Made by a program: the position numbers and the translations under genes. A stretch of 64,000 nt of DNA. Source: an uncultured Candidatus Rokubacteria bacterium (GTDB taxonomy: Bacteria; Methylomirabilota; Methylomirabilia; Rokubacteriales; CSP1-6). Shown here piece after piece: positions 7,258-37,381 of this stretch; the stretch's first letter is position 1, and each line of letters opens with the position of its first letter. The notes beneath the pieces were generated by a model. That model did not search any database and was not told the DNA's origin. It worked only from the letters and a program-made list of their open reading frames with translations. The stretch spans positions 576,001 through 640,000 of the forward strand of contig CAVXJS010000011.1 in assembly GCA_963762145.1 (NCBI GenBank), read 5' to 3'.

Positions 7258-7268
7258 GAGAGCGCTCC

Positions 7269-8988
7269 TCAGCCGAGACCGCTGCGCAGCCCGAGCAGGC
7301 GGGCGAGCAGGGCCCCGGCCAGCGAGACGAACATGATGATGCAGGCCACCACCACCGCTTCCTCGAACTTGCGCTGGGCGACGTAGTCGAGCTGGAGGAT
7401 CGAGAGGGGCCGGTTGGCGGTGGTGGTGAGCAGCGCGAAGTTGCCGATGTTGCGGGCCGCGCCCACGAACGTGATCATGCCCACCGCGAGCAGGGTCGGG
7501 GCCATCAACCGCAGGATGATACGCCGATACGTCGTCCACCACGACGCGCCCGCGATCCGCGAGGCCTCTTCCAGCTCGGCCCCGAGCTGCAGGAGCCCGC
7601 TCCGGATGATCTGCACGCCGAGCGGCATGCCCGCGATGACCCCCGCGATGATCAGGAGCGCGGTGGTGCCGTAGAGCGGGCGGAGGAAGGCCACCCCGAG
7701 GAAGAGCCAGAGCAGGGCCAGGCCCAGGATGATGCCCGGCACCGTGAAGGGCAGCCAGGAGACGAAGTCGAGCAGGCGGCGGCCCGCGTAGGACGTGCGC
7801 ACGATGATGTAGGCGATGAGGGAGTGCACGAGGATGGCGACCAGCCGCGGTGCCGATCGAGAGGACGAGGGTGTTGTGCAGCGAGCGGAGGAACAGCTCG
7901 TCGCCGAGGACGGTCTGCCAGTTCGCGATCGTCCACGGGTCGGGCACGTGGAAGAAGCCGAAGAGCTTCATGAAGGTGCCGAGCAGCGCGAACGCCACCG
8001 GGACGCCGAGCACCACCAGCGACCAGCGCCAGCACGACGATCGTCGCCGGGCATGCGCGGCGCGGCCGAGCGCGTGGACCCGGCTCTGGAACTGGCCGGT
8101 GACCGTGGTGTAGCGCCGGCCCGCGCGTCAGCCACTGCTGGGCGAAGACGAGCGGGAGCATGGCGGCCAGGATCAGGACCGCGAGCGCGGTGGCCGCGTC
8201 GTAGCGGGGCACGCGGGTGACGAGCAGGTCGTAGATCATGGTGCTGAACACGAAGAAGCGGAACGGCAGGCCCAGCACCTGCTCGACCTCGAAGGTCTGC
8301 AGCGACACCATCGTGCCGAGCAGCAGCACCGACAGGATGGCGGGGGCCATGACCGGCACCGTGATGCGCAGCGCGGTGCGGAGCGTGCTCGCGCCGGCCA
8401 CCCGCGAGGCCTCCTCGAACGCCGCGTTCATGTTGCGGAAGGCGGGGGTCGAGAAGGATCACCTTGACCGTCAGGGAGCCGGTCACGACGTGGACCCAGA
8501 CGATGCCCCAGAACGAGTAGATGTTGAACGGGCCCGTGCCCACGAACGGCAGCGGCGGCGAGCGACGGTGTTGACGAGCCCGTACTCGGGATCGAGGAGC
8601 AGGATCCAGCTGAGCGTCACCGTGAACGGCGGCAGGAAGAAGGCGGCCCAGAACGCGAACTCGATCCAGCTCGCGGCCGGGCAGGTCGGTGCGCGCGAGC
8701 AGCCAGGCGATGAGCACCGCGAGCGGCAGCGAGAGGAGCTGCCGCGCGAAGGTGACGGTGAGCGTGTTCCGAGCGCGGCGCGCAGGCCCGGCTCGCCGAG
8801 CGCGGCCCGCCAGCCGTCGAGCCCGTAGCGGGCCGGCTGGCCCGGCGGCGCGACCTGAAGGCTCTGCAGCGACGACGAGGAGCAGCGGGAACACCACGCA
8901 GAGGGCGACGCGCGGCGAGGACGAGCGTGCACAGCACGCCTGCGAGCTCGAGGCGCCGCGGGCGCGGCGCGGCGAGCGCGTCGCTCAG
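7269..8988 (-). CDS. ABC transporter permease, FbpB/iron-type with two TM domains (frameshifted; start approximate)
   Basis: Two EAA loops (FEEASRVAGAS, LEEASRIAGAS) spread over ORFs 7269-7829, 7652-8431, 7968-8897 and 8483-8932. Confidence 0.75.
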
Positions 8989-10138
8989 GCCGGCCACACG
9001 CTCACCAGCTCCGGCGGAAAGGCGAGGCGCACCCGCTCGCCCTCGCGCCACTCGCGCGCGCGGGTCAGGAGCAGCACGATGCGTGCTCGCCGCCCGAGCG
9101 TCACGCGGGCCTCGTAGCGGTCGCCCACGAAGGACAGGGCGTCGATGGCGCCGAGCAGGCGCGTGGGCATCCGGGCGAGCGCGGCGTCGTCCGGCGCGAC
9201 CCGGATGTCCTCGGGGCGGATCGCGACCGTCGCGGCCGACCCCGGCGCGAGGCGCGGCCTCCGCCGCGTTGCGGCCGGTGAGCGTGCAGCCGCCGAGCGT
9301 GCCGTTCATCGCCACCGTGACGGCACCCGCGGCGTGACCGGACGCGCGGGGCCGCGACGCGGCCGCGTCAGCAGCACGGTCTGGCCGAGGAAGTCGCGCA
9401 CGAAGGCGGAGGCGGGCCGCTCGTAGAGGGCGCGCGGCGAGCCGACCTGCTCGACGCGGCCGCGATGCATGACCGCGATGCGGTCGGAGAGGCTCAGCGC
9501 CTCGACCTGATCGTGGGTGACGAACAGCACCGTGATGCCGAGCCGGCGCTGCAGCAGCTTCACCTCCACCCGCATCTGCTCGCGCAGCTTGGCGTCCAGG
9601 TTGCTGAAGGGCTCGTCGAGCAGCAGCAGGTCCGGCTCGTAGACCAGCGCCCGGCAGAGGGCCAGGCGCTGCATCTGCCCGCCGCTCAGCAGCGTGGCCG
9701 GGCCGCGCGTCTCGAGTGCCGCTCGAGCCCGACCAGGCCCAGCACGCGGGCCACCTTGTCGCGGACCGCGGCCCGCGTGAGCCCGCGCAGCTGGAGCGGG
9801 TAGGCCACGTTCTCGAACACGGTCATGTGGGGCCAGATCGCGTAGGACTGGAAGACCATGCCGAGGTTGCGCTGGTTGGGCGGCACGAAGATGCCGGCGC
9901 GCCGCCGAGGCCACCACCCGGTCGCGCAGGGTGATCTCGCCCGCGTCGGGGTGCTCGAGCCCGGCCACGAGCCGCAGGGTGGTGGTCTTGCCGCAGCCGC
10001 TGGGGCCGAGCAGGGTGAAGACCTCGCCGCGCCTGATCGACGAGCGACGCCGAGTCCACCGCGGCCGCCTCGCCGAACAGCTTGCTGACGCCGTCGAGCG
10101 CGAGGACCGTCTCGCCGCGTCGGGCGCCGCGCCACCAT
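8985..10138 (-). CDS. ABC transporter ATP-binding protein (frameshifted)
   Basis: GPSGCGKTT Walker A, LSGGQ signature, LLLLDEPFSNLD, VTHDQ; TOBE-like tail in 8985-9170. Confidence 0.85.
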
Positions 10139-10144
10139 GGCTCC

Positions 10145-11243
10145 TTACTTGATCACCGCTTTGGCGATGTCCTGGGTCTTGACGACCTCGGCCAGATTCT
10201 CCTCCGCGTCCACCTGCAGAGCTTCCGCCGTTGCGGGGCACCGCGATCTGGCGGATTGCCCGGCTCGACGCCGATCCGCCGGCTGTTCGTCTCGACCTCG
10301 CGCGCCCAGACGACCTGGGCGTCCTTGGTCAGCAGCCAGTTGATGAACACCTTCGCCGCGGCCGGATGCGGGGCCTGGTTGACGAGCCAGAGTGACGCTG
10401 CTGCTGGAGTTGACGGTGTCCATCTCGGGGAAGTGGAAGGTCTTGAGGTTCTTGCCGAGCCCTTGCTTCTGGAACTGGCTCGAGCAGCAGCGGGTTGACG
10501 CCGAGCGCGATCGGGATAGCGGCCCCGCACCATGAACTCGGCGATCTGGCGGGTGTCGCGGCTCAGCGCCGGCTCCTGGTCGACGAAGAGCTTCTTGATG
10601 ATGTCGTCGCCCAGGTTGAGGCGGGCGCTCGTCATCGGCCAGAACGCGTCGCCCATCGTGCGCACGTCGGGCAGCAGCAGCTTGCCCTTCCAGCTGGGAT
10701 TCAGCAGGTCGGTGAGTCCCTTGATCTGCTCTTCCTTCACCAGGTCGGTGTTGACGGTGATGCCCGCGCCGCGCGACCGCGACGAAGCCGTAGGCGAGCG
10801 CGCGGTCCTTCACCGAGGCGAAGCCGCGCTCGAAGCCGCCCTCCCAGCCCGCGTCGTCCTTGACCTCGGCATGCACGATGGCCGGGCCGGACCGGGTCCC
10901 AGACCCCGGCCGGGCGCAGCACCTGCAGCGCGGTGCTGGTGGGGATCGTGGCCACGTCCCAGGTGAAGAGGTTCGCCTGGCGCTCCTGCATGATGCGCGG
11001 CGCGAAGTCCTGCGAGTGCAGCCCGGTGTGCTCGAGCTTGATGTCGGGATACGCCTGGGTGAAGGCCTTGAGCGCCCGCTTGTAGCCGTCGCCGGGGAAG
11101 GTGTTGACGACGACCTTGCCCTCCTTCTTGGCTGCCGCGAGGACCTGCGGCCATTCCGGCGGCACATTGGCCGCGGCGGCGGGTCGGGCGAGCGACGCCG
11201 CGACGCCCACCAAGACCGCGCGCATCAACTGTCGCCGGCTCAT
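10145..11243 (-). CDS. Extracellular solute-binding protein (frameshifted)
   Basis: MSRRQLM Tat-like start, AAKKEGKVVV, LLNPSWKGK, APHPAAAKVFINWLL. Confidence 0.8.
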
Positions 11244-11325
11244 CCGTCGTCGGCCATCTCGATCCTTTCTGACACCGCGTGGCTGACACGGGTCGTGGTA
11301 GTCACGGGCGTGGCGGCGGCGCGAT

Positions 11326-12660
11326 TCAGCCCGCGGCCGGCGGCGCGGCGCTGCTCTTCGCCGCATCTGCTCCTGGAGGTACCGGACGGAGACCCGCTCG
11401 AGGGGCACCGCGTCCGGGGACAGGCCGTCGGGGTTCTTGTACTCGAACGGCGCGTCGCGGCCGCCGAACTGCTTGGTGACGACCAGCCGCCGCCACTGGA
11501 TGACCTCGGCGTCGGTGCCCGAGAGCTTCTCCGGGGTGTCGTAGCGCTGGTTGAGCATCACCCGCTCGTCCTGGCGCGAGAAGTTGTACTCGATGATCCA
11601 CCGGTGGAGCGCCGCGTAGACGAGCCGCTCCCAGATCCGCCCGAGCGCGGTCTTCGGCCGCGTGCAGTGGTAGTACCAGACGCGCGTCAGGTGCTCCTCC
11701 ACCGGCACGCACATGCGGGTGTAGAGATCCCAGCCGAACTCGGCGCGGAACATGCCGGGCAGGTGATGGCCGCCGCACCACCGCGCGGACCGCGGCGGGG
11801 GAATGTGGCGCCGCGCCCGGTCGGCGAGCGGCTGGGTCAGCCACGTCCAGAGGCGGCGGTAGTTGTCTTCGGCCACTTGCGGCCGTCGGCGTAGACGTCC
11901 TGGACGCGGGTTCTGGCGCATGTAGTTGCTCTCGGCGACGTCGCCGCCGAACCCGTTGCCCACGAAGATCGGGTGCTCGCCCTGCGCGCCGCGCGCGATG
12001 AAGCCGCTGCGCGTGACCACCACCGCGTTGCGGTGCACGTAGTTGACGTGCGAGTCCATCGAGTTCTCGAGCGCGACCTCCCAGTTGCACCGCCAGTGCA
12101 CCTGGCCGATGAGGACCAGCGCGCTCGTCGTCGAAGAACTCCTCGGGCACGTCCTCCTCGATCGGCGCGGGCGTCGCCGTCGCCGATCCACACGAAGACG
12201 AGGCCCTTGAGCGTGCGGGTCGGGATAGGCCTTCGCCTCGGTGCCGGCCTTGCCGCACACGCCCGAGTTCGGGCCCTCGGAGAGCACCATCACGTTCTTG
12301 CCCGACTCGTCGTAGACCCAGCCGTGATACGGGCAGGCCACCGTGCCCCGGTAGTGGCAGTCGCCCTCGCTCAGGCGCGCGCCGCGGTGCGGGCAGATGT
12401 CCTGGATGGCCGCCACGTCGCCGTTGGCGCCCGCGGAAGAGGCAGATCTCCTCGCCGAGCAGCGAGACCTTCACCGGCTTGCGCGATGCCCGACCGCGCG
12501 GTCGCTCGATGGCCGGATACCAGTAGTTGCGCAGGCCGAGCTTGGGGATCAGGTGGCGGATGTCGCCGCTGAGCTTCGGGGATCGCGCCGTTGCCGATCG
12601 CGGTGCTCGGGTCGCGCGACGTGCAGGTGGGACGTGGAGTTGCGAGGTAGGTGTCGGCAC
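11326..12660 (-). CDS. Rieske non-heme iron oxygenase alpha subunit (frameshifted)
   Basis: GLRNYWYPA, CPHRG...CPYHGW Rieske motif, NWEVALENSMDSHVNYVH iron-binding motif; GAGGAG RBS before GTG. Confidence 0.82.
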   Translation of the reverse strand: MPTPTSQLHVPPARRATRAPRSATARSPKLSGDIRHLIPKLGLRNYWYPAIERPRGRASRKPVKVSLLGEEICLFRGRQRRRGGHPGHLPAPRRAPERGRLPLPGHGGLPVSRLGLRRVGQERDGALRGPELGRVRQGRHRGEGLSRPARSRASSSCGSATATPAPIEEDVPEEFFDDERAGPHRPGALAVQLGGRARELDGLARQLRAPQRGGGHAQRLHRARRAGRAPDLRGQRVRRRRRREQLHAPEPASRTSTPTAASGRRQLPPPLDVADPAARRPGAAPHSPAAVRAVVRRPSPARHVPRRVRLGSLHPHVRAGGGAPDARLVLPLHAAEDRARADLGAARLRGAPPVDHRVQLLAPGRAGDAQPALRHPGEALGHRRRGHPVAAAGRHQAVRRPRRAVRVQEPRRPVPGRGAPRAGLRPVPPGADAAKSSAAPPAAG

Positions 12661-12680
12661 GCCGATCTCCTCTGCCTGCC

Positions 12681-13743
12681 TCAGGGCTTGAACGATGGCG
12701 AAGCACTTGTTCGAGTTGAACGACCACGTCTCGATGAAGTCGCACTCGTCCGGCTTGCGCCCCAGCTCCTCCATGGCGCCGGCGAGCATGTACCAGTTCA
12801 GCATCTCCTGCTGGCCCGACGTCTCGATGGCCGCGAGCGGCGTCTGGCGCCACGTCTCGTAGTCGCCCGACGCGGAGCGCCTCGTAGAGCCGCCGGTCGG
12901 ACTCGATGTCGGGGTAGAGCTGGTGGTGCTTGTCGGTGAGGAAGGCGTGCGACCAGCTCGACGAGGCGATGAGCGCGGTGCGCCACGGGCTGTCGCGCAT
13001 CGACCCGCGCGGTCGCCGCGCCCACCTCCATGCAGCGCTTCGGCGACGGCGACGGCGGGTCGAGGTCGGCGTCGCCGAGCGGGTGGGCGAGGCTGCCGCG
13101 GCCGCCGCGCTGGGCGATGACCCGGCGCCCGTAGCAGTTGACCTGGAACGCGATGACCGGGTAGGGGAAGCCGACCCGGTCGTAGTCGAGGAACATGATC
13201 GTGTTCAGGAACGCGTGGGCGAGGCCCGGGATAGTGCAGGGGCTTGTAGGCGTACGCCATGTCCACGCCCTGCTCGAGGAGCGCCGGTCGCGAGGTACTT
13301 GCCGGCCTGCCGGTGCCCGGCGATGCGGAAGGTGGTGTCGGCGGGCTCGCCCCAGACGTTGGGCGGCGACGCCGGCGCGCTGCCACGGGCGCGCCTCGAT
13401 CTGGTCGTAGGCGAGCACGCAGAAGGGCGGGATGACGTCCTCGGTGAAGTTCTCGTGCTGGTCGTCGCCCCAGATCGACCACGACGTCCGGGCGGAACTC
13501 GTCGAGGATGCTGCCGGGCGTGCCGGAAGTGGCGGAGCAGGCCTCGCGATGCCCGGCCGCGCTCGCGGTGCCGCCGTCGTCGCCGTACTCGCGCCGCATC
13601 GCGGCCGGCCAGCTCGCGGGATCGCGGTAGCGCTCCGGGAGGCCGGGGTCCTGCAGGACGCGGCGGAGGATGCCGGCCATGTTCTCGTCCAGGCCGGTGA
13701 GCGGCGGGTAGTGCGTCATGCCCAGGCCGAGAATCTCGCCCAT
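12681..13743 (-). CDS. Extradiol ring-cleavage dioxygenase, LigB-like (frameshifted)
   Basis: LGLGMTHYP, GDDQHENF, GLAHAF, SSSWSHAF, SGQQEMLNW segments across frames. Confidence 0.8.
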
Positions 13744-13780
13744 GAGGGAGCCCTCCACGTCGGGTGCCAGCGCCTGCGCA

Positions 13781-13810
13781 ACCCTAGTCCCCGGGGCCGG
13801 GGATTGTCAA
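13781..13810 (-). promoter_or_regulatory. Putative sigma70 promoter for the LigB/Rieske/ABC operon
   Basis: TTGACA-N18-TAGGGT about 38 nt upstream of the ATG; spacer contains the inverted repeat TCCCCG/CGGGGA. Confidence 0.5.
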
Positions 13811-16476: not shown

Positions 16477-18501
16477 GTGGCTCTCCGGATCGGCATCGAC
16501 ATCGGCGGCACCTTCACGGACCTGGTCGCGCTGGACGAGGCGACCGGAGCGGTGGTGGACACGAAGGCCCTCTCGACGCCGCACGATCTGCTCGAGGGCA
16601 TCCTCCGCTGCGTGGACCAGGCGGGGACGCGCCTGGCCGACTGCCGCCTCGTCATCCACGGGACCACCATCGGGATCAACGCCCTGCTCGAGCGAAAGGG
16701 CGTGGTGACCGGGCTCCTCACCACCGAGGGGTTCCGGGACGTGCTCGAGATCGGGCGCGGCAACTTCCTGCGCATGTACGACGTCCTGTATCGGCGGCCC
16801 GCCTCCCTCGTTCCCCGCGGCCGTCGCCTCGAGGTGAGCGAGCGGGTGACCGCGCGGGGCGAGGTGCTGATCCCGCTGGACGAGGCGGCGGTGCGCGACG
16901 CGGCCCGGCGGCTCGCCGACGATGGCGTCGAGTCGGTCGCGATCTCGTTCCTGTTCTCGTTCCGCAACCCGGAGCACGAGCGGCGCGCGGCGGAGCTCGT
17001 GGCCGAGGTCCTCCCGACGGCATCGGTGTCGGTCTCGCACCGGATCACCCAGGAATGGCGCGAGTACGAGCGCACCAGCACCACGGTGGTGAACGCCTAC
17101 ATCCGGCCCATCATGGACCGCTACCTGGGCGCCTTCGAGCGCGGGCTGGCCGGGCGCGGCTTCGGGGGCCAGCTCCTGATCACCCAGTCGAACGGCGGCG
17201 CGTTCTCGGTGGCGGCCGCGGCCTCCAAGCCGGTGCACACCATCGAGTCGGGCCCCGCGGCGGGGGCCATCGGCTGCGCGGCGCTCGCGCAGGCGCTCGG
17301 CGCGGACCGGCTCATCTCCTTCGACATGGGCGGGACCACCGCCAAGTGCGCGATCGTCGCGGGCGGGCTCGTGCAGACCACCGACGAGTACCACGCGGAC
17401 GGCCACCCGCTGCGCATCCCGGTCATCGACATCACCGAGGTGAGCGCGGGGGGCGGCACCATCGCCTGGATCGACGCGGGCGGCGCGCTCGCCCTGGGCC
17501 CGCAGAGCGCGGGCGCGGCCCCGGGTCCGGTCTGCTACGGGCGCGGCGGGGTCGAGCCCACCGTCACCGACGCGAACCTGGTGCTGGGGCGCATCGCGGC
17601 CGGCCGCTTCCTCGGCGGCACCATGCCGCTCGACCACGCGGCGGCGTCGCGGGCCATCGAGGAGCGCCTCGGGCTCGCCGCTCGGGCCTCGCGCGCGACA
17701 ACGCGGCCGCCGGCGTCGTGCGGCTGGCGGACGTGAAGATGGCGCTCGCGGTGCGCAGCATCACGACCGAGCGCGGCCTGGATCCGCGGGACTACGCGCT
17801 GGTGGCCTACGGCGGGGGCGGCCCGCTCCACGCGGTGGCGATCGCGCGCGAGCTCGGGATCCCGCGGGTCATCATCCCGCCCGCGCCGTCCACGTTCTCG
17901 GCGTGGGGGATGCTCGCCACCGATCTCCGGCACGATCTGGTGCGCACGGTGCTCGAGCCCCTCGAGCGCACCGACGGGGCGTGGGCCGAGGCGCGGTATC
18001 GCGAGATGGAGCGCGAGATCGAGTCCATCCTGCCGCCGGTGGGCGCGGCGACCCTTCACCGGGCCGCGGACCTGCGCTACCTGGGCCAGGAGCACACCGT
18101 CACGGTGGAGGTCGGGGAGCCTGGCGGACTGGGCGTCGCTGCGCGGCCGCTTCGACGCCGCGCACCAGCGCGCCTACGGCTACGCGGCGGCCGACGTGGA
18201 GGTGCAGCTCCTGAACCTGCGCCTGGCCGTCGTGTACCCGCTCGATCGGGCGCCGCTCCCGGCTCTCGATCGCGGGACGGGGCGTGGGCCGGCGTTCGAG
18301 ACGCGCAAGATCTACTCCACGCTGCTCCGCGACGTGCTCGAGTACCGCGTGTTCCCGCGCGAGCGGCTGCGGGCGGGGGACGTGGTCGAGGGGCCGGCCG
18401 CGATCGAGGAGGCGGGTACGACCACGATGCTGGAGCCGGGCGACCGCCTCCAGGTCGAGAGCAACGCGTGCCTCGTGATCGACGTGGTGAAGGGAGGCTG
18501 A
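16477..18501 (+). CDS. Hydantoinase A/oxoprolinase family (frameshifted near 17690 and 18120)
   Basis: GIDIGGTFTD, HGTT, ESGPAAG, DMGGTT, GAAPGPVCYG, TDANLVLG, GGGGPLHA, GPAAIEE. Confidence 0.88.
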
Positions 18502-24031: not shown

Positions 24032-24850
24032 TGGGCCGTCGCGGGGTCGACGGCGGCCGGGCTGCTCGTGATCGGCATCCTCGCCCTGATCGCGGCGCTC
24101 GCGCCGCATGTCGTGCCGGGCAGCCCGACCGAGATCGCCAAGGATCACGCGCTGCGCGGCCCGACCTGGAGCCAGCCGTTCGGCATGGACGATCTCGGGC
24201 GGTCCATCCTGAGCCGGGTCGCGCACGCCTACCGCGTCTCGCTCGGCGTCGCGCTGGCCTCGGTGGCGCTGGCCCTGCTGGTCGGCCTCCCGCTCGGGCT
24301 GGTGGCGGGCTACGCGGAAGGCGCGCTCGATCAGCTCATCATGCGGCCCCTCGACGTGCTGATGGCCTTCCCCGCGATCCTCCTCGCGATCGCCCTCATG
24401 AGCGTGTTCGGCACCGGCGTGGTGCTGGTGGCCGCCTCGCTCGCGGTGGTCTACACGCCGATCGTGGCGCGCGTGGTCCGGGCCGCGGTGCTCGCGGTCA
24501 AGGCGGAGATCTACGTGGACGGCGCGCGAGCGCTCGGCGCGCCCGGGGCCCGGCTCGTGCTCCGCCACATCCTCCCCAACGCGGCCACTCCGGTGCTGGT
24601 GCAGGCCTCGGTGCTGATGGCGATCGCGATCCTGGTCGAGGCCTCGCTGTCGTTCCTGGGCGTCGGCGTGCGCCCGCCGACCCCATCGCTCGGGCTCATG
24701 CTGGCCGACGGCCGCGGCTTCATGGTGCAGGCGCCCTGGATGGTGATCTTCCCCGGGCTCGCGATCATGGCCGCGGTGCTCGGCTTCAACATGGTGGCCG
24801 ACGGCCTGCGCGACTGGCTCGACCCTCAGCAGGCCGCGGGGCGCTCGTGA
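24031..24850 (+). CDS. Peptide ABC permease, DppC-like (5' end frameshifted)
   Basis: FGMDDLGRSI, ARALGA, HILPN, EASLSFLG, DGLRDWLDP. Confidence 0.85.
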
Positions 24851-24877
24851 TGGCCGGGGCCTGATTCGAGGCGTAGC

Positions 24878-26134
24878 ATGAGCCCCATGAAGACCGGACG
24901 GTTCGTCATCGTCGGGGCCGCGCTGGCGGGAGCGAGCGCGGCGGCGGCCCTCCGCGAGGAGGGCTTCGAAGGGGAGATCACCCTGGTCGGCGCCGAGCCG
25001 GTCATGCCCTATAACCGCCCGCCGCTGTCGAAGGGGTATCTCCGCGGCCACGACCGCTTCGAGGATCAGCTCGTCAACCCGGCCGAGTTCTATGCCGAGC
25101 ATCGCATCGACCTGCGGCTGGGCGTCCGCGCCGAGGCTGTCGACCCGACGCGAAAGGTGGTGTCCCTGGAGCGCGGCGACGAGGTCGCGTACGACCGCCT
25201 GCTGGTGGCCACCGGCGGGCGCAACCGGGCGCTGACGACCCCCGGGGCCGACCTTTCCGGCATCTTCCAGCTCCGCACCGTGGAGGACTGCGACCGCATC
25301 CGGGCCGTGGCCAAGCCCGGACGTCGTGCGGTCGTGATCGGGCTCGGCTTCATCGGCTCCGAGGTGACCGCGTCGCTCCGGCAGATGGGCGTCGAGGTCA
25401 CCGCGGTGGAGGGCAACCCGGTGCCGCTGGCGCGCGTGCTGGGCCCGGAGGTCGGCGCGGTGCTGGCCGGTATCCATCGCGAGAAGGGGGTGGAGCTGGT
25501 CCTCGAGGATCACGTGGCGGCCTTCGAGGGCGGCAGCGCGGTGGAGCGCGTGCGCACCAAGAAGGGACGGGTGCTCCCGTGCGATTTCGTGGTGGCCGGC
25601 ATCGGCATCGTGCCCAACACGGAGGTGCTGGCCGCGGCGGGAGCGGCGGTGGACAACGGCGTGCTGGTGGACGAGCACTGCCGCACCTCGCTGCCCGACG
25701 TCTACGCGGCGGGTGACGTGGCGAACCACCTCCATCCCGTGTTCGGGCGGCTGCGCGTCGAGCACTGGAACAACGGCTACCGGCAGGGCCGGGCCGCGGC
25801 CCACGCCATGGCGGGGGGCGCCCAGCCGTACGACTACATGCACTCCTTCTGGTCCGATCAGTACGAGCACGTGGTCGAGTACATCGGCTTCGCGGCGACC
25901 TGGGACCGGCTCGTGTTCCGGGGCGATTTGGCCAGCCGGAAGTTCCTCGGCTTCTACATGAAGGACGGGGTGGTGCGCGCGGCGATGGGACTCGATCGGG
26001 GCGGCGACCCCGAGGACCCCAAGGGCGGCAGCGAGCTGGGCGCGGTCGCGGGCTTTATCCGGGATCGGGTTCCGGTGGACCCCGCGCGCCTCGCCGACGA
26101 GGGCGTGGACCTCAAGCGCATCGCCCGTCCGTAG
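24878..26134 (+). CDS. FAD-dependent NAD(P)H:ferredoxin reductase-like oxidoreductase
   Basis: GAALAG, PYNRPPLSK, LVATGG, GLGFIGSE, AAGDVA, RVEHW, FWSDQY. Confidence 0.9.
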   Translation: MSPMKTGRFVIVGAALAGASAAAALREEGFEGEITLVGAEPVMPYNRPPLSKGYLRGHDRFEDQLVNPAEFYAEHRIDLRLGVRAEAVDPTRKVVSLERGDEVAYDRLLVATGGRNRALTTPGADLSGIFQLRTVEDCDRIRAVAKPGRRAVVIGLGFIGSEVTASLRQMGVEVTAVEGNPVPLARVLGPEVGAVLAGIHREKGVELVLEDHVAAFEGGSAVERVRTKKGRVLPCDFVVAGIGIVPNTEVLAAAGAAVDNGVLVDEHCRTSLPDVYAAGDVANHLHPVFGRLRVEHWNNGYRQGRAAAHAMAGGAQPYDYMHSFWSDQYEHVVEYIGFAATWDRLVFRGDLASRKFLGFYMKDGVVRAAMGLDRGGDPEDPKGGSELGAVAGFIRDRVPVDPARLADEGVDLKRIARP

Positions 26135-26152
26135 TGGTAAACTCCTGACACC

Positions 26153-27111
26153 ATGAGCTTCGACTACGGCAAGTACTTCGGCGAGATCAAGCTGACCCAC
26201 GACCTCCTCACGAAGAAGGAGGAGCGCACGTGGCTGCTGAAGCCGCCGCGCGACGGCGAGCGCCACGACATCGTCCTCTACCTGGGCTGCAACGTGCTGC
26301 GCACCTCGCACATGGTCCAGACGGTGAGCGCGATCTTCGACCGGCTCGGCCTGGACTACGTGGCCGCCGGCGGGCCGACGTACTGCTGCGGCATCCAGCA
26401 CCACCGGCGCGGGCAGGAGGCCTCGGGCGAGCGCTACGCCAACCACACGGTCGAGCTGCTGCAGAAGCATGGCGCCGCGCGAGGTGGTCATGTGGTGCCC
26501 GTCGTGCATCCAGTTCTACGACGAGGTGCTCGAGGCCGACCTGCCGTTCCCCAAGCGCCACACCGCCGAGTTCCTCGCCGACCGCCTGGACCGCGGCGAG
26601 TTCACGTTCACCCAGCGGGTCGAGGCCACCGTCGCGCTGCACTATCACCGCGCGACCGAGCCCCGGCAGCGCGAGGGGCTGGCCGCGCGCCGGCTGCTCG
26701 AGGCGATCCCGGCGTCACGGTCGTGGACTTCGAGCCCGACGCGCGCTGGGGCCGCACCTGCACGCCGGCGCTGCAGGAGCAGCTCGGGCCCGAGGTCTGG
26801 CGGCAGATGGTGCTCGACGACATCGACCGCGCGCTCGGCCGCCGGGGCCACCCACATGGCCGGCATCTACCACGGCTGCCACCGCGACCTCTGCCGGTTC
26901 GAGGCCGAGCGGCCGATCGTGTTCGAGCACTACCTGACGCTGTTCGGGCGCGCCCTCGGCATCGAGTTCGAGGACACCTACAAGAAGTACATGCACATGG
27001 GGCGACCCCGACCGGATCCTCGAGGACGCCACGCCCCTGCATGGCCGCCAACGGCGTCGAGCGCCGAGGCGGCGCGCGGGCTCGTCATCAAGACCTTCTC
27101 GCCAAGCGTGA
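26153..27111 (+). CDS. CCG-domain Fe-S protein, heterodisulfide reductase B-like (frameshifted; end approximate)
   Basis: YLGCN, YCCG, WCPSC, then RTC and YHGCHR in a second, degenerate CCG repeat. Confidence 0.7.
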
Positions 27112-27120
27112 GGGCGCGCC

Positions 27121-28063
27121 ATGGCGACGATCGCGCCGTCGATGAAGGCCGCGTTCGCCGCGGAGCACGACGTGCCGATCCCGTACATGCAGCGGACGCG
27201 CGACTACTACCAGGCCCTCGGCTTCGCCCCGTACCGCTGGGCGCACTTCGTCGACGCGCCGTTCACGCCGCTGCGACGTGCCGCTCGCGCCGGGCGCGCG
27301 TCGCGCTGATCACGACCGCGGCGCCGTTCCAGCCGGAGGCCGGCGACCAGGGGCCGCGGCGCCGCGTACAACGCCGCCGCGAAGTTCTACCAGGTGTACT
27401 CGATCGCCGACGGACACCGAGCCCGATCTCCGCATCTCGCACGTCGGCTACGACCGCCGCGCACACGTCGCGCCGAGGACATCAACACCTACTTCCCGCT
27501 GGCGCGCCTGAAGGACGCGGTCGGCGGCCGGGCGGATCGGCGGCGCTCGGCGCCGCGCGTCCACGGCGCGCCGACGAATCGCAGCCACCGGGTGACGATG
27601 GAGACCGACGCGCCCGAGCTGCTGCGCCGCTGCCGGGAGGACGGCGTCGACGCGGTCGTGCTCGTCCCGAGCTGACCGGTCTGCCACCAGACCGTGGGTC
27701 TGGCCGCGCGGCACCTCGAGGCGAACGGCATCCCGACCGTGATCATGGGCTGCGCCAAGGACATCGTCGAGCACTGCGGCGTCCCGCGCTTTCTGTGGAG
27801 CGACTTCCCGCTCGGCAACTCGGCCGGGCGGCCGTTCGACGTGGAGTCCCAGGCCGAGACGCTCGAGCTGGCGCTGCGCGTGCTCGAGACCGCGCCGGCG
27901 GCCCGCACCACCGTGCAGTCGCCGCTCCGCTGGACCGAGGACGCGGCGTGGAAGCATCGACTTCAACGACCTCTCGAAGCTCTCTCCGGAGGAGATCGCC
28001 GAGCGGCGCAAGGAGTTCGAGGTGGTGAAGGCGGTGGCGAAGGCCAAGCGCGAGGGCGCATGA
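27121..28063 (+). CDS. Glycine/sarcosine/betaine/D-proline reductase selenoprotein B (GrdB/PrdB)-like protein; Sec at 27673-27675; several frameshifts
   Basis: RVALITTA, LRISHVGYD, D.NTYFPL, REDGVDAVVLVPS-TGA-PVCHQTVGLAARHLEANGIPTV, FPLGN; the frame continues across the TGA. Confidence 0.82.
27687..27703 (+). promoter_or_regulatory. Putative bacterial SECIS hairpin
   Basis: CCAGACC-GTG-GGTCTGG perfect 7-bp stem beginning after an 11-nt spacer following the TGA. Confidence 0.7.
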
Positions 28064-29256
28064 GCAAGCCGTTCGCCGGCGTCCGCATCCTCGACTTCAC
28101 CCGCTATCTGGCCGGCCCGTACGGCACCTACCAGCTCGCGCTCCTCGGCGCCGACGTCGTCAAGATCGAGTCGCACGAGGGCGACGAGACGCGCGGCCAG
28201 CTCGCCGACCGAAGTGGGCGGAGCGCAAGATGGCGCCGTCCTTCCTGGCCGTGAACGGCAACAAGCGCAGCATCACGCTCGACCTCCGTAAGCCGGAGGC
28301 GATCGAGATCGTCAAGCGGCTCGTGGTCGGCGCCGACGTGGTCTGGGAGAACTTCCGCGGCGGCGTCATGGACCGGCTCGGCCTCGGCTACGAGGCGCTC
28401 GTCCGCCATCAATCCGCGGCTCATCTACTGCGGCGTCTCGGGCTTCGGCCGGACCGGGCCGGAGCAGACGACCGCGGCCTTCGACGGCAAGCTGCAGGCG
28501 ATGTCCGGGATCATGTCGATCACCGGCGAGCCCGCGTCGGGCCCGACGCGCGCGGGCTTCGCGATCTGCGACACCATCGGCGGCATGACCGCGGCGCTCG
28601 CGGTGGCGAGCGCGCTCTTCCAGCGCACGCACACCGGGCGCGGGCAGCTCGTGGACGTGGCGATGCTGGACGCGGCGCTCGCCTTCATCCGCGGGGCCGG
28701 TGTCCGAGTACACGGTGGCCGGCATCGAGCAGAAGCAGATCGGCAACGGCTCGGTGAGCCGCAAGCCGACCGCGAGCCGCTTCCGCGCGCGCGACGGCTA
28801 CATCGTGCTGGCCGTCCTCACCGAGAAGCAGTTCGCGAGCCTGATGAAGGCGCTCGGCCGGCCCGACGCGCTCGCCGATCCGCGCTTCAAGGACTGGCCG
28901 GCGCGCACCGCGAACGAGCCCGCCCTGCGCGAGATCATCGAGCAGCGCGCTCGCCACCGACGACGCGCGCAGCGTGGGAGGCGCGGCTGACCGCGGCCGA
29001 CGTGCCCTGCGGCTCGATCTGGAAGATCGACGAGATCGTCGGCCACCCGCAGCTCGAGCACCGCGACGTGCTGCAGACCATCGACTCGCGCTACGGGCCG
29101 ATGCGGCTGGTCGGCGCGGGCTTCCGCCTCGAGCACGGCAGCCCGGGCATCGACCGGGAGCCGCCGACGCTCGGCGAGCACACCGACGAGATCCTGGACG
29201 AGGCCGGCTACAGCGCGGAGGAGATCGAGCGGCTTCGGCGCGACGCGGTGGTGTGA
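28060..29256 (+). CDS. CoA-transferase family III (CaiB/BaiF) (frameshifted)
   Basis: GVRILDFTRYLAGPY, LGADVVKIE, NKRSITLDL, ENFR.G...LGLGY, PPTLGEHTDEIL; ATGA overlap. Confidence 0.88.
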
Positions 29257-29269
29257 GGGGTCGCGGGGC

Positions 29270-30298
29270 GTGAGGCTCGCGGTGACGGACGGGGTCGTGA
29301 AGACGGACCGGCACAGCACCTTCTACCTGGATGCCGGCGCGCCCGACGCGCCCGTCATCGTGTTCGTGCACGGGTGGCCCGAGCTCTCGCTCTCCTGGCG
29401 GCACCAGCTCCGGTGCTTCGCGGACCTCGGGTTCCGCGCGGTCGCGCCCGACATGCGCGGCTACGGCCGCTCCGGCGTGTACCGGCGCCACGAGGACTAC
29501 GCGATCGAGCACGCGGTGGCCGACATGCTCGAGCTGCTCGACGCGCTCGGGCGGGAGAAGGCGGTCTGGGTCGGCCACGACTGGGGGAGCCCGGTGGTCT
29601 GGAGCCTCGCGAGCCATCACCCGGAGCGCTGCTGGGGGGTGGCCAACCTGTGCGTCCCGTACCTGTCGGGCGGCTTTTCTCCGCGCAACCTGATCCCGCT
29701 CGTGAACCGCGCGGTCTATCCGGAGGCGCAGTACCCGGCGGGGCAGTGGGACTACATGCTCTTCTACGAGGAGAGCTTCGAGAAGGCCTGTACCGGCTTC
29801 GACGCCGACCCGCGCAACCTGGTCAAGGCGCTCTTCCGGAAGGGAAGCCCCGGCGGCAAGGGAAAGCCGTCGCGCACCGCGCAGACCCGGAAGGACGGTG
29901 GCTGGTTCGGAGGCACCGGCCAGGTGCCCGACGTGCCCATGGACGCGGACGTGGTGACCGCGGAGGAGCTGGAGACGTACGCGGCCGGTCTCGCGCGCAA
30001 CGGCTTCTTCGGTCCGGATTCCTGGTACATGAACGCGGAGCGCAATCTAGAGTACGCGAAGCTTGCGAAGGATGGCGGCGTGCTGAGCCTGCCCGCCCTG
30101 TTCCTGCACGGCGAGTACGACTACACCTGCGAGACCGTCGAGTCCCGGCTCGCCGAGCCGATGCGGCGCGATTGCCGGAACCTCACCGAGGTGGTCGTGT
30201 CCTCGGGACACTGGATGGCGCAGGAGAAGCCGCGGGCCGTGAATGCCGCCCTTGCGAAGTGGCTGGTGACCCAGCTGCCGGAGATCTGGCCCGTCTGA
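29270..30298 (+). CDS. Alpha/beta hydrolase, epoxide hydrolase-like
   Basis: HGWPE, PDMRGYG, GHDWG, GHWMAQEKP. Confidence 0.88.
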   Translation: MRLAVTDGVVKTDRHSTFYLDAGAPDAPVIVFVHGWPELSLSWRHQLRCFADLGFRAVAPDMRGYGRSGVYRRHEDYAIEHAVADMLELLDALGREKAVWVGHDWGSPVVWSLASHHPERCWGVANLCVPYLSGGFSPRNLIPLVNRAVYPEAQYPAGQWDYMLFYEESFEKACTGFDADPRNLVKALFRKGSPGGKGKPSRTAQTRKDGGWFGGTGQVPDVPMDADVVTAEELETYAAGLARNGFFGPDSWYMNAERNLEYAKLAKDGGVLSLPALFLHGEYDYTCETVESRLAEPMRRDCRNLTEVVVSSGHWMAQEKPRAVNAALAKWLVTQLPEIWPV

Positions 30299-30330
30299 CG
30301 TCACCGCTCCAGCCGGAGGAGGTCCCGATC

Positions 30331-31305
30331 ATGTTGCGTACACGCATCTGCGAGCTGCTGGGTATCGAGCACCCGATCGTCCTCGGCGGCATGGGCACCG
30401 GGACCTCGCCGGCGCTGGTGGCCGCCGTCTCGGCCGCGGGCGGCCTCGGCGTGCTCGGCGCGACCCGCCAGGATCCCGCCGAGGTGGGCCGCGACGCCGC
30501 GGCGATTCGCGCCCTGACCGGCACGCCGTTCGGGCTGAACCTGCTCCTGTTCATGGAGCGACCCGGGCAGTACGACGGCCTCCTGGCCGCCCGCCCCCGG
30601 GTGATCTCAACCGCCTGGCCGGGGCTGGAGCAGGATCTCGGCGGCTACGTCGCCCGGGCGCACAAGATCGGCGCCCTGTTCATGCACATGGTCTCCACGG
30701 TGGCCGAGGCGAAAGCCGCGGCTCGCGCCGGGGCGGACGTGATCGTGGCGCAGGGGACCGAGGGCGGCGGCCACATCGGCCTCATGGGTACGATGCCGCT
30801 CGTCCCGATGGTGGTCAGCGCGGTGGCGCCGACGCCAGTGCTGGCGGCCGGCGGCGTCGCGGACGGGCGGGGGCTGGCCGCGGCCCTGGCCCTGGGCGCG
30901 GATGGGGTGCTCCTGGGCACACGCTTCCTGGCCACGGAGGAGGCGCCGATCGCCAAGGGCTTCAAGCAGGCGATCGTGGAGAGCGACGGCCACGACACGC
31001 TGGTGACCGACATCCCCGACGTGGCGAACGACCAGGTCTGGCCCGGCGCCTACGTGCGCGTTCGGCGCAATCGCTTCATCGAAGAGTGGATGGGGCGTGG
31101 CCATGAGCTGCGCCGGCACCGCGCCGAGGTGAGCGCCCAGCTCCGGGAGGCCGCCAAGGCGGGCGACCCGGACCGGGGCGCGATCATGATCGGCCAGACC
31201 GCCGGCCTCATCGACCGCGTCGAGCCGGCCGCGGACCTGGTGCGGCAGATCAGCCGCGACGCCGAGACCATCCTGCGCGAGCGCCTGCCGCGCCTGCTTG
31301 CCTGA
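30331..31305 (+). CDS. Nitronate monooxygenase family flavin oxidoreductase
   Basis: GIEHPIVLGGM, QGTEGGGH, AAGGVADG, GTRF, GQTAGLI. Confidence 0.88.
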   Translation: MLRTRICELLGIEHPIVLGGMGTGTSPALVAAVSAAGGLGVLGATRQDPAEVGRDAAAIRALTGTPFGLNLLLFMERPGQYDGLLAARPRVISTAWPGLEQDLGGYVARAHKIGALFMHMVSTVAEAKAAARAGADVIVAQGTEGGGHIGLMGTMPLVPMVVSAVAPTPVLAAGGVADGRGLAAALALGADGVLLGTRFLATEEAPIAKGFKQAIVESDGHDTLVTDIPDVANDQVWPGAYVRVRRNRFIEEWMGRGHELRRHRAEVSAQLREAAKAGDPDRGAIMIGQTAGLIDRVEPAADLVRQISRDAETILRERLPRLLA

Positions 31306-31312
31306 GGGAGAC

Positions 31313-32974
31313 ATGACCGAAAAGAGACCGGCGACGGCGTCACGCGGCATGGTGGTCACCAATCACCCGCTCGGCTCGGCGGCGGGAGCGGAGATGCTCG
31401 CGGCGGGCGGCAACGCGGTGGACGCGGCCATCGGCGCGCTCTTCGCGCTCACCGTGGTGGAGCCGATGATGGTGGGCATCTTCGGCGCGGGCATGACCCA
31501 CCTGCGGCTGGCCGACGGCCGGCACCTCGTCATCGACAACTACACGACGGCGCCGGCCGCCTCGCGGCCCGACATGTTCAAGCCGGTCTCGGACACCTGG
31601 CCCGACTACCTGCGCGCCGAGGGCGACGTGAACCTGGTCGGCCTGCTCTCGGTGGGCGTGCCCGGCACGCTGAAGGCCTGGACGGAGGCGGTGGCGCGCT
31701 TCGGGCGCCTCGACCTCGAGACCGTGATGCAGCCCGCGATCCGCCACGCCGAGCGCGGCTTCCGCGCCACCCCGTACCTGGTGGCGGCGGTGACGGAGAC
31801 CGCGCCCGAGCTCGCGCGCTTCCCCGAGACCGCGCGGACCTTCCTGCCCGGAGGTGCCCCCATCAAGGCGGGCGACCTGATCGTGATGCCGGAGTATGCG
31901 GCCACGCTGCGGCTGATCGCGGCCAAGGGGGCCGGCGTGCTCTACGGCGGCGACCTCGGCGCAACGGTGGCGGACTACATGCGCCAGGACGGCGGCATCA
32001 TCACGCTGGACGACCTGGCGGGCTACGCCACGATCGAGCGGCAGCCGATTCGCGGCCGCTACCGTGGCTTCGAGATCACGGGCCCTCCGCCGCCGACTGC
32101 GGGCGGGCTGCACCTGGTCGAGATGCTGAACATCCTCGAGGGCTTCGACCCGCGCGGCCTGGGCTTCGGCACCGCGGACTACTTCCACCTGATGGCCGAG
32201 GTGCTCAAGATCGGCTTCGCGGACCGGAACGCGTGCACTGGAGATCCGGCCTTCGTGGACATTCCCGTCGAGCGCCTGCTCTCGAAGGAGCACGCGGCGG
32301 CGCGGCGCGCGCAGATCCGCCCGGACCGGGCGGGGGACTACGCAGTGGGTGTCACGGCGGATGTGGGGGCCGGCTCCGCGCACACCACCCACGTCACGAC
32401 CGCCGACGCGGACGGCAACGTGGTCGCGATGACCCAGACCATCAACAACCTGTTCGGCTCGAAGGCCACGGTGCCCGGCACCGGCATGCTGCTCAACAAC
32501 ACGATGGCCCTCTTCGACCCGCACCCCGGGACGCCCGCCTCCGTCGCGCCGGGCAAGCGGGTGACCAGCAGCATGGCGCCCACGATCGTGCTGCGCGACG
32601 GCAAGCCCGCATGGGCCCTCGGGCTGCCCGGCGGCGTGCGCATCTTCACCTCGGTGTTCCAGGCGGTGGTCAACCTGATCGACCACCGCATGAGCCTTCA
32701 AGAAGCGGTGGAGGCCCCGCGGATCTGGAGCCAGGGCCAGGAGCTCGAGATGGAGCAGGATATTCCGGTGGCCGTCCGGGCCGCGGTCGCCGCGCGCGGC
32801 CACGACGTGGTGGCGGTCGGGGGCGTGGCGGGCGGGATGAACGCGGTGGCCTTCGCGGCCGACGGCGCGCTCGAGGGCGCGGCCTGCTGGCGCGCCGACG
32901 GCACGCCGATCGGCGTGAGCGGCGGGCTCGCCCGGCCGGGGAGCCGGTTCCGGCCGGACGTGAAGCGGCGCTAG
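31313..32974 (+). CDS. ggt: Gamma-glutamyltransferase
   Basis: GGNAVDAA, VGVPG, HTTHVT nucleophile, FGS, PGKRVTSSMAP, GLPGG. Confidence 0.92.
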   Translation: MTEKRPATASRGMVVTNHPLGSAAGAEMLAAGGNAVDAAIGALFALTVVEPMMVGIFGAGMTHLRLADGRHLVIDNYTTAPAASRPDMFKPVSDTWPDYLRAEGDVNLVGLLSVGVPGTLKAWTEAVARFGRLDLETVMQPAIRHAERGFRATPYLVAAVTETAPELARFPETARTFLPGGAPIKAGDLIVMPEYAATLRLIAAKGAGVLYGGDLGATVADYMRQDGGIITLDDLAGYATIERQPIRGRYRGFEITGPPPPTAGGLHLVEMLNILEGFDPRGLGFGTADYFHLMAEVLKIGFADRNACTGDPAFVDIPVERLLSKEHAAARRAQIRPDRAGDYAVGVTADVGAGSAHTTHVTTADADGNVVAMTQTINNLFGSKATVPGTGMLLNNTMALFDPHPGTPASVAPGKRVTSSMAPTIVLRDGKPAWALGLPGGVRIFTSVFQAVVNLIDHRMSLQEAVEAPRIWSQGQELEMEQDIPVAVRAAVAARGHDVVAVGGVAGGMNAVAFAADGALEGAACWRADGTPIGVSGGLARPGSRFRPDVKRR

Positions 32975-33725
32975 CCCTTCGCGCCCGCCGCCGCGCGGTC
33001 GATCAGGTCCTTCGCGCCGGCCTGGATCCACGGGAAGAAGCTGGTCATGATGCAGCGCACGCCCTTGCGCGTGTAGCTCTCCACGTTGGCCGAGCTGACC
33101 AGCGTGCCCGCGGTGCGCCCCGCCTGCACGATCTTGGCGATCGCGCCGTCCACCGTCTTCTGGACCTCCGGATGCGTCATGTTGCCGATGTGGCCCATCG
33201 ACGTCGCCAGGTCGTTGGGGGCGACGAAGAAAACGTCGATGTGGTCCACGGTCAGGATCGCGTCGAGGTTGTTGACGGCCACGATGTCCTCGATCAGGAC
33301 GATGAGCAGGCTCTGGTCGTTGGCGGTCTTCAGGTAGTCGCCCACCCCGAAGCCCTGGCGGCTCGTGAACATGCCGCGCTTGCCGAGCGGGGCGAACTTG
33401 GCGCCCTCCACCACCGCCTGGGCCTCCGCACGGGTGTTGACGTGCGGCACGACGATTCCTTGCGCTCCCCGGTCGAGCGTCCGGTAGATGGTGGCGTAGT
33501 CGTTGTCCATCACGCGCACCACGCTGGTCACGTCCCAGAGATCGCAGGCCCGGGTGAGGTTGCCCAGGTCGGCGTAGTCCACCCCGCCGTGCTCGCCCTC
33601 GAGCCAGATGCCGTCGGCGCCGAGCGGGCCGAGCTGGTCGATCAGGTCCGGATCGTTGGTGCCCGACAGGATGGTCGCCACCTGTCCCGCGGCCAGACGC
33701 TGCTTCACCTTGTTCGCTCGGATGC

Positions 33726-33729
<4 letters not shown>
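32971..33729 (-). CDS. HpcH/HpaI aldolase family
   Basis: LEGEHG, LDRGAQGIVVPHV, FAPLGKRG, LIE, FVAPNDL. Confidence 0.88.

Positions 33730-37381
<3,652 letters not shown>

Follow-up and report, generated by a model that had tools for sequence, protein, structure and literature searches.

Gene content of the locus and decoding of the in-frame TGA

A cluster of four genes, the third of which encodes a selenocysteine (Sec)-containing protein related to the D-proline reductase subunit PrdB, is located on the forward strand of a 64,000 nt stretch of contig CAVXJS010000011.1 (hereafter the window), which derives from a soil Rokubacteria genome (6.26 Mb, 25 contigs, 88% completeness). The G+C content of the window is 72% and its nearest public relatives are metagenome-assembled genomes (MAGs) of Rokubacteria/Methylomirabilota. 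The first gene of the cluster (24878..26134) is intact and codes for an FAD/NAD(P)H flavoprotein of 418 amino acids, which contains a Pyr_redox_2 and a Reductase_C domain and is of the ferredoxin-reductase type. It is separated by 18 nt from the start, at 26153, of a gene for an HdrB-like CCG-domain Fe-S protein (26153..27120, 3′ end approximate; 316 amino acids in relatives), which was recognized by a Pfam CCG match on its first piece and by its frame path. The PrdB-like selenoprotein gene (27121..28063; 306 amino acids in relatives), identified with the TIGR04483 profile and terminating in a stop codon at 28061-28063, is followed by a gene encoding a family III (CaiB/BaiF/Frc-type) CoA-transferase (28060..29256; 397 amino acids in relatives). 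The ATG of the latter gene at 28060 overlaps the selenoprotein stop codon by 4 nt. The same overlap is found in an intact relative (L016), where the stop codon of the CCG gene also overlaps the selenoprotein start by 4 nt. The four gene families named in a preliminary description of this DNA are all present in the places described, as judged by Pfam and NCBIfam matches, and its 18 nt gap and 4 nt overlap stand. Its further gap of 9 nt, between the CCG and selenoprotein genes, resulted from reading through frameshifts, as did its 330 amino acid CCG open reading frame ending at 27145.

The selenoprotein gene contains an in-frame TGA codon (27673..27675) in the context V-P-S-U-P-V-C-H-Q-T, giving the motif U-P-V-C, and the residues P-x-C-H-Q-T are invariant in 13 sequences. 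When the 162 amino acid in-frame piece of the window was used as query, matches were obtained in 27 of 41 related genomes, including 19 of the 20 belonging to the same genus, and an in-frame TGA was present in 42/42 matches. Across 80 loci from public genomes the codon aligned with the Sec site is TGA in 64 cases and TGC or TGT in 16; a further locus (L111) lacks the exact motif, and one locus (L069) gave two copies. The Cys forms were found in the Alphaproteobacteria, including cultured Belnapia, Siccirubricoccus, Pseudoroseomonas and Xanthobacter sp. A hairpin resembling a selenocysteine insertion sequence (SECIS), with a 7 bp stem (CCAGACC/GGTCTGG) and a GTG loop, starts 11 nt past the TGA codon (27687..27703), and a hairpin of at least 6 bp occurs in this place at 62/64 TGA loci versus 2/16 Cys loci. 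The folding energy of this region is no better than that of shuffled sequences (z -0.16 to -1.0) in this G+C-rich DNA, and the case for a SECIS element thus rests on where the hairpin lies and on its difference in frequency between TGA and Cys loci. Furthermore, selB, selA and the tRNA-Sec gene are found together on contig 9 of the same genome (G000:C9:751777-756726), and selD (G000:C11:419505-420437) has an in-frame TGA of its own, which indicates that it is itself a selenoprotein gene. Reading of the TGA codon at 27673-27675 as Sec is therefore well supported and very probable. The accessible text of a 2026 review (PMC13188914) gives a prediction of 63 selenoprotein genes for one Methylomirabilota genome.

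The second to fourth genes of the cluster are interrupted by frameshifts in the window. A MAFFT alignment of positions 24850-30320 with four relatives, whose encoded proteins are ~75-95% identical, so that indel positions are approximate, placed 18 frame-changing insertions (17 of 1 nt and one of 2 nt) and two 1 nt deletions in this region. The CCG gene accounts for six of these indels, the selenoprotein gene for nine and the CoA-transferase gene for five, with none in the flavoprotein gene or in the alpha/beta hydrolase gene that follows the cluster; an additional 11 nt difference from the relatives occurs at the CCG/selenoprotein junction. A plot of third-position G+C content, together with a six-state frame path, likewise showed the reading frame to change about a dozen times from 26470 to 28958, with the genes on either side single-framed. 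Five pieces, distributed over three frames, match successive parts of the CoA_transf_3 profile (2-42, 54-108, 111-202, 209-291 and 293-366). Third-position G+C content (GC3) is 0.95-1.0 within every shifted piece, and the in-frame pieces share 86-97% identity with a close relative (G013), compared with 87-96% for the intact neighboring genes. The same genes are unbroken in relatives.

The ~20 frameshifts are most likely, with a high degree of confidence, consensus errors of a long-read assembly and not gene decay, since the indels are nearly all insertions, GC3 is maintained, the identity of the pieces is normal and the genes of relatives are intact. The confinement of the indels to three genes, with both flanking genes intact, would fit true pseudogenes in a module that is decaying in this organism. 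Such decay is nevertheless improbable: 18/20 indels are insertions, the in-frame pieces show no excess amino acid divergence, and GC3 is undiminished. The locus is, moreover, also frame-broken in G013, another highly contiguous assembly (40 contigs), whereas short-read assemblies are intact, and comparable clusters of frameshifts occur elsewhere in the window. One cluster (7244-13783, minus strand), larger than that in the locus itself, comprises ~25 short segments with the same signature and spans a VanA_C-like oxygenase gene as well as ABC transporter genes (BPD_transp_1, ABC_tran). In addition, a hydantoinase/oxoprolinase A gene (16486-18119, plus strand) is split by an isolated frameshift, such that profile positions 1-201 and 211-290 are encoded in two different frames. 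The copy in the window is thus probably an error-laden version of an intact operon, and illustrates how a conserved operon can be masked by local indel errors even when a metagenome assembly is contiguous.

The selenoprotein family and its CoA-transferase partner

The 162 amino acid piece of the window matches the PrdB profile TIGR04483 (Bitscore: 66.5; e-value: 2.4e-18), as does the intact 306 amino acid ortholog of L016 (Bitscore: 92.1; e-value: 3.6e-26; profile positions 18-235 of 238), for which the cut-off is 300 bits. The ortholog also falls below the GrdB-type cut-offs of PF07355 (16.3 vs 22 bits), TIGR01918 (28.8 vs 65.45 bits) and TIGR01917 (29.7 vs 602 bits). Relatives are publicly annotated as 'D-proline reductase (dithiol) PrdB', and the family is large, with at least 8000 database proteins at an e-value of 1e-5 or below that are named PrdB, 'selenoprotein B family' or hypothetical. 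As stated in the preliminary description, no Grd or Prd partner was seen in the window, and no PrdA gene (PF09338) was found among the neighbors in 13 annotated related loci. A search of the genome for GrdE/PrdA (PF09338) and GrdA (PF04723) likewise yielded no match, in a genome that is 88% complete and with control genomes equally silent, which leaves the absence of these proteins unproven. Because the scores lie below the cut-offs and no PrdA gene adjoins it, we place the selenoprotein outside PrdB and GrdB proper and assign it to an orphan environmental 'PrdB' family.

Structural comparisons are consistent with a generic fold. No PDB sequence matched the family profile at an e-value of 1 or below, and a Foldseek search of the PDB with the AlphaFold2 model (predicted local distance difference test score: 77.8; predicted template modeling score: 0.83) gave no match at an e-value of 0.001 or below. 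The model predicts a three-layer alpha/beta fold in which U178 is located at a helix N-terminus after a strand, as in redox CxxC motifs. A wide search with VIA-align recovered generic Rossmann-like or periplasmic-binding-protein-like folds only (best Z 11.1 over 140 residues; root-mean-square deviation 4.4), and no function is indicated by these model-based matches.

Neighboring genes were counted at the 80 selenoprotein loci, using those with sufficient flanking DNA in each case. A CoA-transferase gene is located directly downstream of the selenoprotein gene at 70 of 78 loci, comprising 56/57 Rokubacteria-type loci and 14/21 other, mostly alphaproteobacterial loci, with 0-71 nt between the two matches. 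The upstream genes are restricted to Rokubacteria-type loci: a CCG gene directly precedes the selenoprotein gene at 17/74 loci (17/52 Rokubacteria-type) and a flavoprotein gene lies upstream at 12/66 (12/45 Rokubacteria-type and 0/21 others). The alpha/beta hydrolase gene is found downstream at 14/44 Rokubacteria-type and 0/19 other loci. Pfam annotation of 13 diverse loci revealed no other recurrent partner, with major facilitator superfamily (MFS) transporters present at five. As the CoA-transferase is the only general partner across the 80 loci, the conserved unit is the pair of PrdB-like protein and CoA-transferase, which travels together across Rokubacteria and Alphaproteobacteria, and the four-part module that had been proposed is not supported as a general arrangement. 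Six loci of cultured Belnapia, Siccirubricoccus and Xanthobacter sp. (L108, L112, L117, L120, L123 and L125) carry TGC orthologs with the CoA-transferase gene directly downstream. MFS transporter genes often adjoin the Cys-form alphaproteobacterial loci.

The CoA-transferase itself contains a full-length CoA_transf_3 domain (PF02515), with profile positions 2-366 of 366 covered by the five pieces in the window. Its best NCBIfam match is NF052585 (269 bits; cut-off 750), and it remains under every equivalog cut-off. A literature search returned no paper linking PrdB-like proteins with CoA-transferases, and no CCG partner of PrdB-like proteins is discussed in the literature passages covered, the supplementary files of which could hold neighborhood data in both cases. 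The terms 'dicluster', NF045663 and 'CoA-transferase' are all absent from a 2022 preprint on eight selenoprotein families, and a search combining Rokubacteria with selenocysteine returned unrelated papers only. For GrdB-like proteins with selenocysteine, the literature search pointed to a paper on fluoroacetate dehalorespiration. The preliminary description knew of no described system with this layout; the selenoprotein family itself is not new and has been catalogued since 2005.

A second PrdB/GrdB-family selenoprotein with an in-frame TGA, ~35% identical to the first, is encoded elsewhere in the genome (G000:C8:67750-72810; L131 3751-8808). This paralog passes the PF07355 cut-off (32.3 bits), and its gene has, at an equal spacing from the TGA codon, a 7 bp hairpin that differs in sequence. 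It is found in a cluster with genes for a thiamine pyrophosphate enzyme, a family III CoA-transferase and a zinc-dependent alcohol dehydrogenase, and all four cluster genes are present at 5 of 14 further paralog loci (L135, L137, L143, L144 and L146), all from one genus. Three further loci are short contigs that carry portions of the cluster, and in L139 the alcohol dehydrogenase gene is missing. The paralog cluster provides a second line of support for a link between the selenoprotein and CoA. The CoA-transferase gene of the G000:C8 cluster appears frame-broken in this genome.

Proposed function and electron supply

The flavoprotein encoded by the first gene of the cluster matches Pyr_redox_2 (Bitscore: 225; e-value: 1.6e-66) and Reductase_C (Bitscore: 62), and its best NCBIfam matches, all below cut-off, are ferredoxin-NAD+ reductases of oxygenase systems. 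There is no CxxxxC motif in its sequence, on which basis it is predicted to be an electron donor to Fe-S proteins and not a disulfide reductase. The intact ortholog of the CCG protein (P0002) matches PF02754 with 34 bits (cut-off 20.6). Residues C46, C78, C79, C115 and C118, conserved in all 27 sequences compared, form a complete C-X31-CC-X35-C-X2-C site, and a pattern of this type binds non-cubane [4Fe-4S] clusters in HdrB. The C-terminal half contains four other invariant Cys residues (203, 242, 247 and 295), and the protein has one Pfam CCG stretch only. In NCBIfam it scores best against GlpC and against LdhH, a subunit of lactate dehydrogenase, with a further weak match (e-value: 4.2e-5) to diclust_near_Sec, a model for a fused 'pyridine nucleotide-disulfide oxidoreductase/dicluster-binding protein'. 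A PDB sequence search with the CCG protein yielded chance-level matches only. The CCG family is small, with 704 proteins at an e-value of 1e-10 or below, and the few named organisms are MAGs of Rokubacteria/Methylomirabilota or 'Candidatus Acidoferrum'.

The surroundings of the CCG gene were further surveyed at the best 80 of 515 metagenome loci, with identity measured to the L016 ortholog. A selenoprotein gene is located directly downstream at 49 of 72 loci, and its frequency falls with identity, from 32/37 at 88% identity or above to 14/26 at 80-88% and 3/9 below 80%. The flavoprotein gene is adjacent upstream at 23/36 loci in the first class, 0/21 in the second and 0/8 in the third. Within the clade of the window it is absent upstream in L054, L060 and L072, and in L049 it lies 1.8 kb from the CCG gene with three unrelated genes between them. 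The CCG and selenoprotein genes are adjacent on one contig in 17 of the 20 same-genus genomes, and the layout reported from the window is therefore not unique to its genome. CCG orthologs with 56-60% identity are present in G022 and G038, in neither of which a PrdB-like gene was found, and the neighbors of the CCG gene in G022 and G032, the two annotated, are unrelated. The adjacency of CCG and selenoprotein genes is thus frequent in one clade, but is not obligatory.

We propose, with a probability of roughly 0.6, that the orphan PrdB-like selenoprotein, with its U-x-x-C centre and its translational coupling to a family III CoA-transferase, acts together with this enzyme on a CoA-activated acid, and that the CCG protein and flavoprotein may form a clade-specific redox addition. 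By analogy with the Stickland reductases, the pair probably acts on such an acid as follows. The CoA-transferase would convert a carboxylic acid to its CoA thioester, and the selenolate would attack at or beside the activated alpha-carbon, reductively removing a substituent, with the thioester taking the activating role of the pyruvoyl group of PrdA/GrdE. Cys181 would resolve the adduct to yield a selenenylsulfide, which would have to be re-reduced. In the clade of the window, the upstream CCG protein, often accompanied by the flavoprotein, may supply electrons from NAD(P)H, and other lineages would have to use a different reductant. The proposed electron chain is chemically coherent, given a ferredoxin-reductase-type flavoprotein that lacks CxxxxC and a CCG protein with a complete Cys site; a chain from NADH through the flavoprotein to the CCG protein is a plausible lineage-specific addition. 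A functional connection of any kind between the CCG protein and the selenoprotein is tentative and on balance doubtful.

Several observations weigh against parts of this proposal. The reaction scheme is modeled on that of Prd, as presented in the accessible text of PMC11229817. The loci counted are relatives, so that the counts do not represent independent events, and 7/21 non-Rokubacteria loci have no downstream CoA-transferase gene. The more distant paralog loci L133, L136 and L141 also gave no CoA-transferase match with the query used. As regards electron supply, a CCG gene precedes the selenoprotein gene at 0/22 non-Rokubacteria loci, and the sister genus g10 harbors the selenoprotein/CoA-transferase pair without CCG or flavoprotein genes. 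The flavoprotein gene adjoins only the closest CCG genes (0/29 below 88% identity). At 23/72 loci the downstream neighbors of the CCG gene are unrelated to the selenoprotein, and among them are genes encoding an aminotransferase, a DAO oxidoreductase, an NMO-type flavoenzyme and a DNA glycosylase. The NMO gene immediately adjoins the CCG gene on its downstream side in L188 (82-2052) and L208 (890-2839); in the window, the genes for the selenoprotein, the CoA-transferase and the hydrolase stand between the two and look like an insertion. On this account the selenoprotein/CoA-transferase cassette may have been inserted beside a CCG gene. In G021, the pair is located between a PIN-domain gene and an NMO gene.

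Three other explanations can be weighed against the proposed CoA-linked function. That the protein is a subunit of a canonical Stickland D-proline or glycine reductase with its partners encoded elsewhere would agree with the annotation of its relatives and with the TIGR04483 match, but its 92 bits are far from the 300 required, its scores against the GRDB Pfam family and TIGR01918 are likewise too low, PF09338 and PF04723 gave no match in the incomplete genome, where the controls were silent too, and the conserved partner is a CoA-transferase; this explanation is highly improbable. The preliminary description suggested a dedicated four-component reductase, in which electrons would pass from NADH to the flavoprotein, to the non-cubane cluster of the CCG protein and on to the selenenylsulfide of the PrdB-like protein, perhaps acting on a CoA-linked substrate. 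The single strand of the four genes with their 18 nt, overlapping and 4 nt overlapping junctions, the retention of the layout in the genus, the flavoprotein gene beside the majority of the closest CCG genes, the ferredoxin-reductase type of the flavoprotein with the complete CCG motif, and the weak CCG match to the fused diclust_near_Sec model are all in its favor. The flavoprotein gene is, however, missing or displaced in L054, L060, L072 and L049 and absent beside all of the more divergent CCG genes, the pair occurs without either upstream gene in g10 and the Alphaproteobacteria, and CCG orthologs exist without the selenoprotein, so that we regard such a reductase as unlikely. We are equally reserved about its fullest form, in which, in one Rokubacteria clade, a flavoprotein-fed CCG protein would be the dedicated selenenylsulfide reductase of a pyruvoyl-independent PrdB-type enzyme that cleaves the alpha-substituent of a CoA thioester.

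The CCG protein and flavoprotein may alternatively be bystanders, or act on the small-molecule substrate, for example in a dehydrogenase step on a hydroxyacid or amine (cf. LutA, GlcF and GlpC), with the selenoprotein recycled by thiol systems of a general kind, such as thioredoxin. A neighborhood that is variable except for the CoA-transferase, the NMO gene directly after the CCG gene where the cassette is absent, the GlpC and LdhH matches of the CCG protein, and the presence of 2-hydroxyacid dehydrogenases near some loci (L072 and L118) are in line with this explanation. It is less easily reconciled with the overlap of CCG stop and selenoprotein start in L016 or with the 49/72 CCG loci with a selenoprotein gene downstream, which is above chance in one clade, and it therefore stands as a somewhat unlikely alternative that is nonetheless stronger than the four-component reductase.

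Additional genes flank the cluster in the window. Genes encoding a peptide-type ABC transporter and hydantoinase are located upstream. Downstream, an intact gene (29270..30298, forward strand) codes for an alpha/beta hydrolase resembling epoxide hydrolases and haloalkane dehalogenases, for which the NCBIfam matches are below cut-off, and is followed by the gene for the NMO-type flavoenzyme. A trio of genes further downstream (31299-34576) encodes a gamma-glutamyltranspeptidase, an HpcH/HpaI aldolase or citrate-lyase-like protein and, on the opposite strand, a DehI-like protein of the haloacid dehalogenase family. This trio is conserved and is also found at L052 and L054, the two relatives in which the gamma-glutamyltranspeptidase was confirmed by Pfam; in the window its identity is inferred.

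Comparison with known systems

Few environmental selenoprotein families are as abundant as the PrdB-like U-x-x-C family, which the accessible text of the surveys treats simply as proline reductase, although PrdA has not been seen in these organisms. The near-constant CoA-transferase partner points to CoA-activated acids as substrates, and the cultured carriers of Cys forms (Belnapia, Siccirubricoccus and Xanthobacter sp.) make the substrate question testable. The CCG and flavoprotein neighbors, a clade-specific extension of this locus type, are one specific possibility for the electron donor that the selenoprotein lacks. Were the CCG protein the dedicated reductase of a pyruvoyl-independent enzyme that cleaves a CoA thioester, this would be the first assigned function for the environmental 'PrdB' family and a new kind of substrate for CCG clusters.

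The CoA-transferase shares the full CoA_transf_3 domain with the family III enzymes Frc, CaiB, BaiF and succinate-glutarate CoA-transferase, and its best matches are succinate-glutarate and formyl-CoA transferases. It differs from the named members in scoring below every equivalog cut-off, and its substrate specificity is thus not assignable by family. The CCG protein has one complete CCG Cys site in common with HdrB and other proteins of PF02754 (GlpC, LutA, GlcF and TfrB). However, the second CCG domain of HdrB is replaced by four other invariant Cys residues, and the HdrA/C, GlpA/B, LutB/C and GlcD/E partners of HdrB, GlpC, LutA and GlcF do not accompany it. Its proposed substrate would, moreover, be a protein selenenylsulfide.

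With the D-proline reductase PrdB of Clostridioides difficile and C. sticklandii the selenoprotein shares homology over nearly the whole profile and a Cys two residues past Sec. It differs from PrdB in its score far under the equivalog cut-off, in ~40 extra residues at each end, and in its coupling to a CoA-transferase, with no pyruvoyl subunit PrdA found. According to the available text of PMC11229817, D-proline bound to the pyruvoyl group is attacked at its alpha-carbon by the Sec residue of PrdB, the enzyme is regenerated by PrdC, and a U151C variant of PrdB is inactive, whereas the orphan family includes natural Cys forms.

The closest counterpart is the 'proline reductase PrdB' UxxC family, catalogued as an abundant environmental selenoprotein since 2005, with 42 genes in the Sargasso Sea, where it ranks third, and 235 in the Global Ocean Sampling (GOS) data, as given in the accessible text of the two surveys (Zhang, Fomenko & Gladyshev 2005, PMC1088965; Zhang & Gladyshev 2008, PMC2398784). 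We take the selenoprotein of the window to belong to this 2005/2008 family, the two being equated by description and not by sequence. They share homology to PrdB, a Sec residue in a U-x-x-C motif, Cys homologs and an occurrence in non-Stickland environmental bacteria, and the window gene has both a TGA codon aligned with Cys and a downstream SECIS-like hairpin. The accessible text of both surveys mentions no partner genes; here the family has a CoA-transferase partner and, in one clade, a CCG protein.

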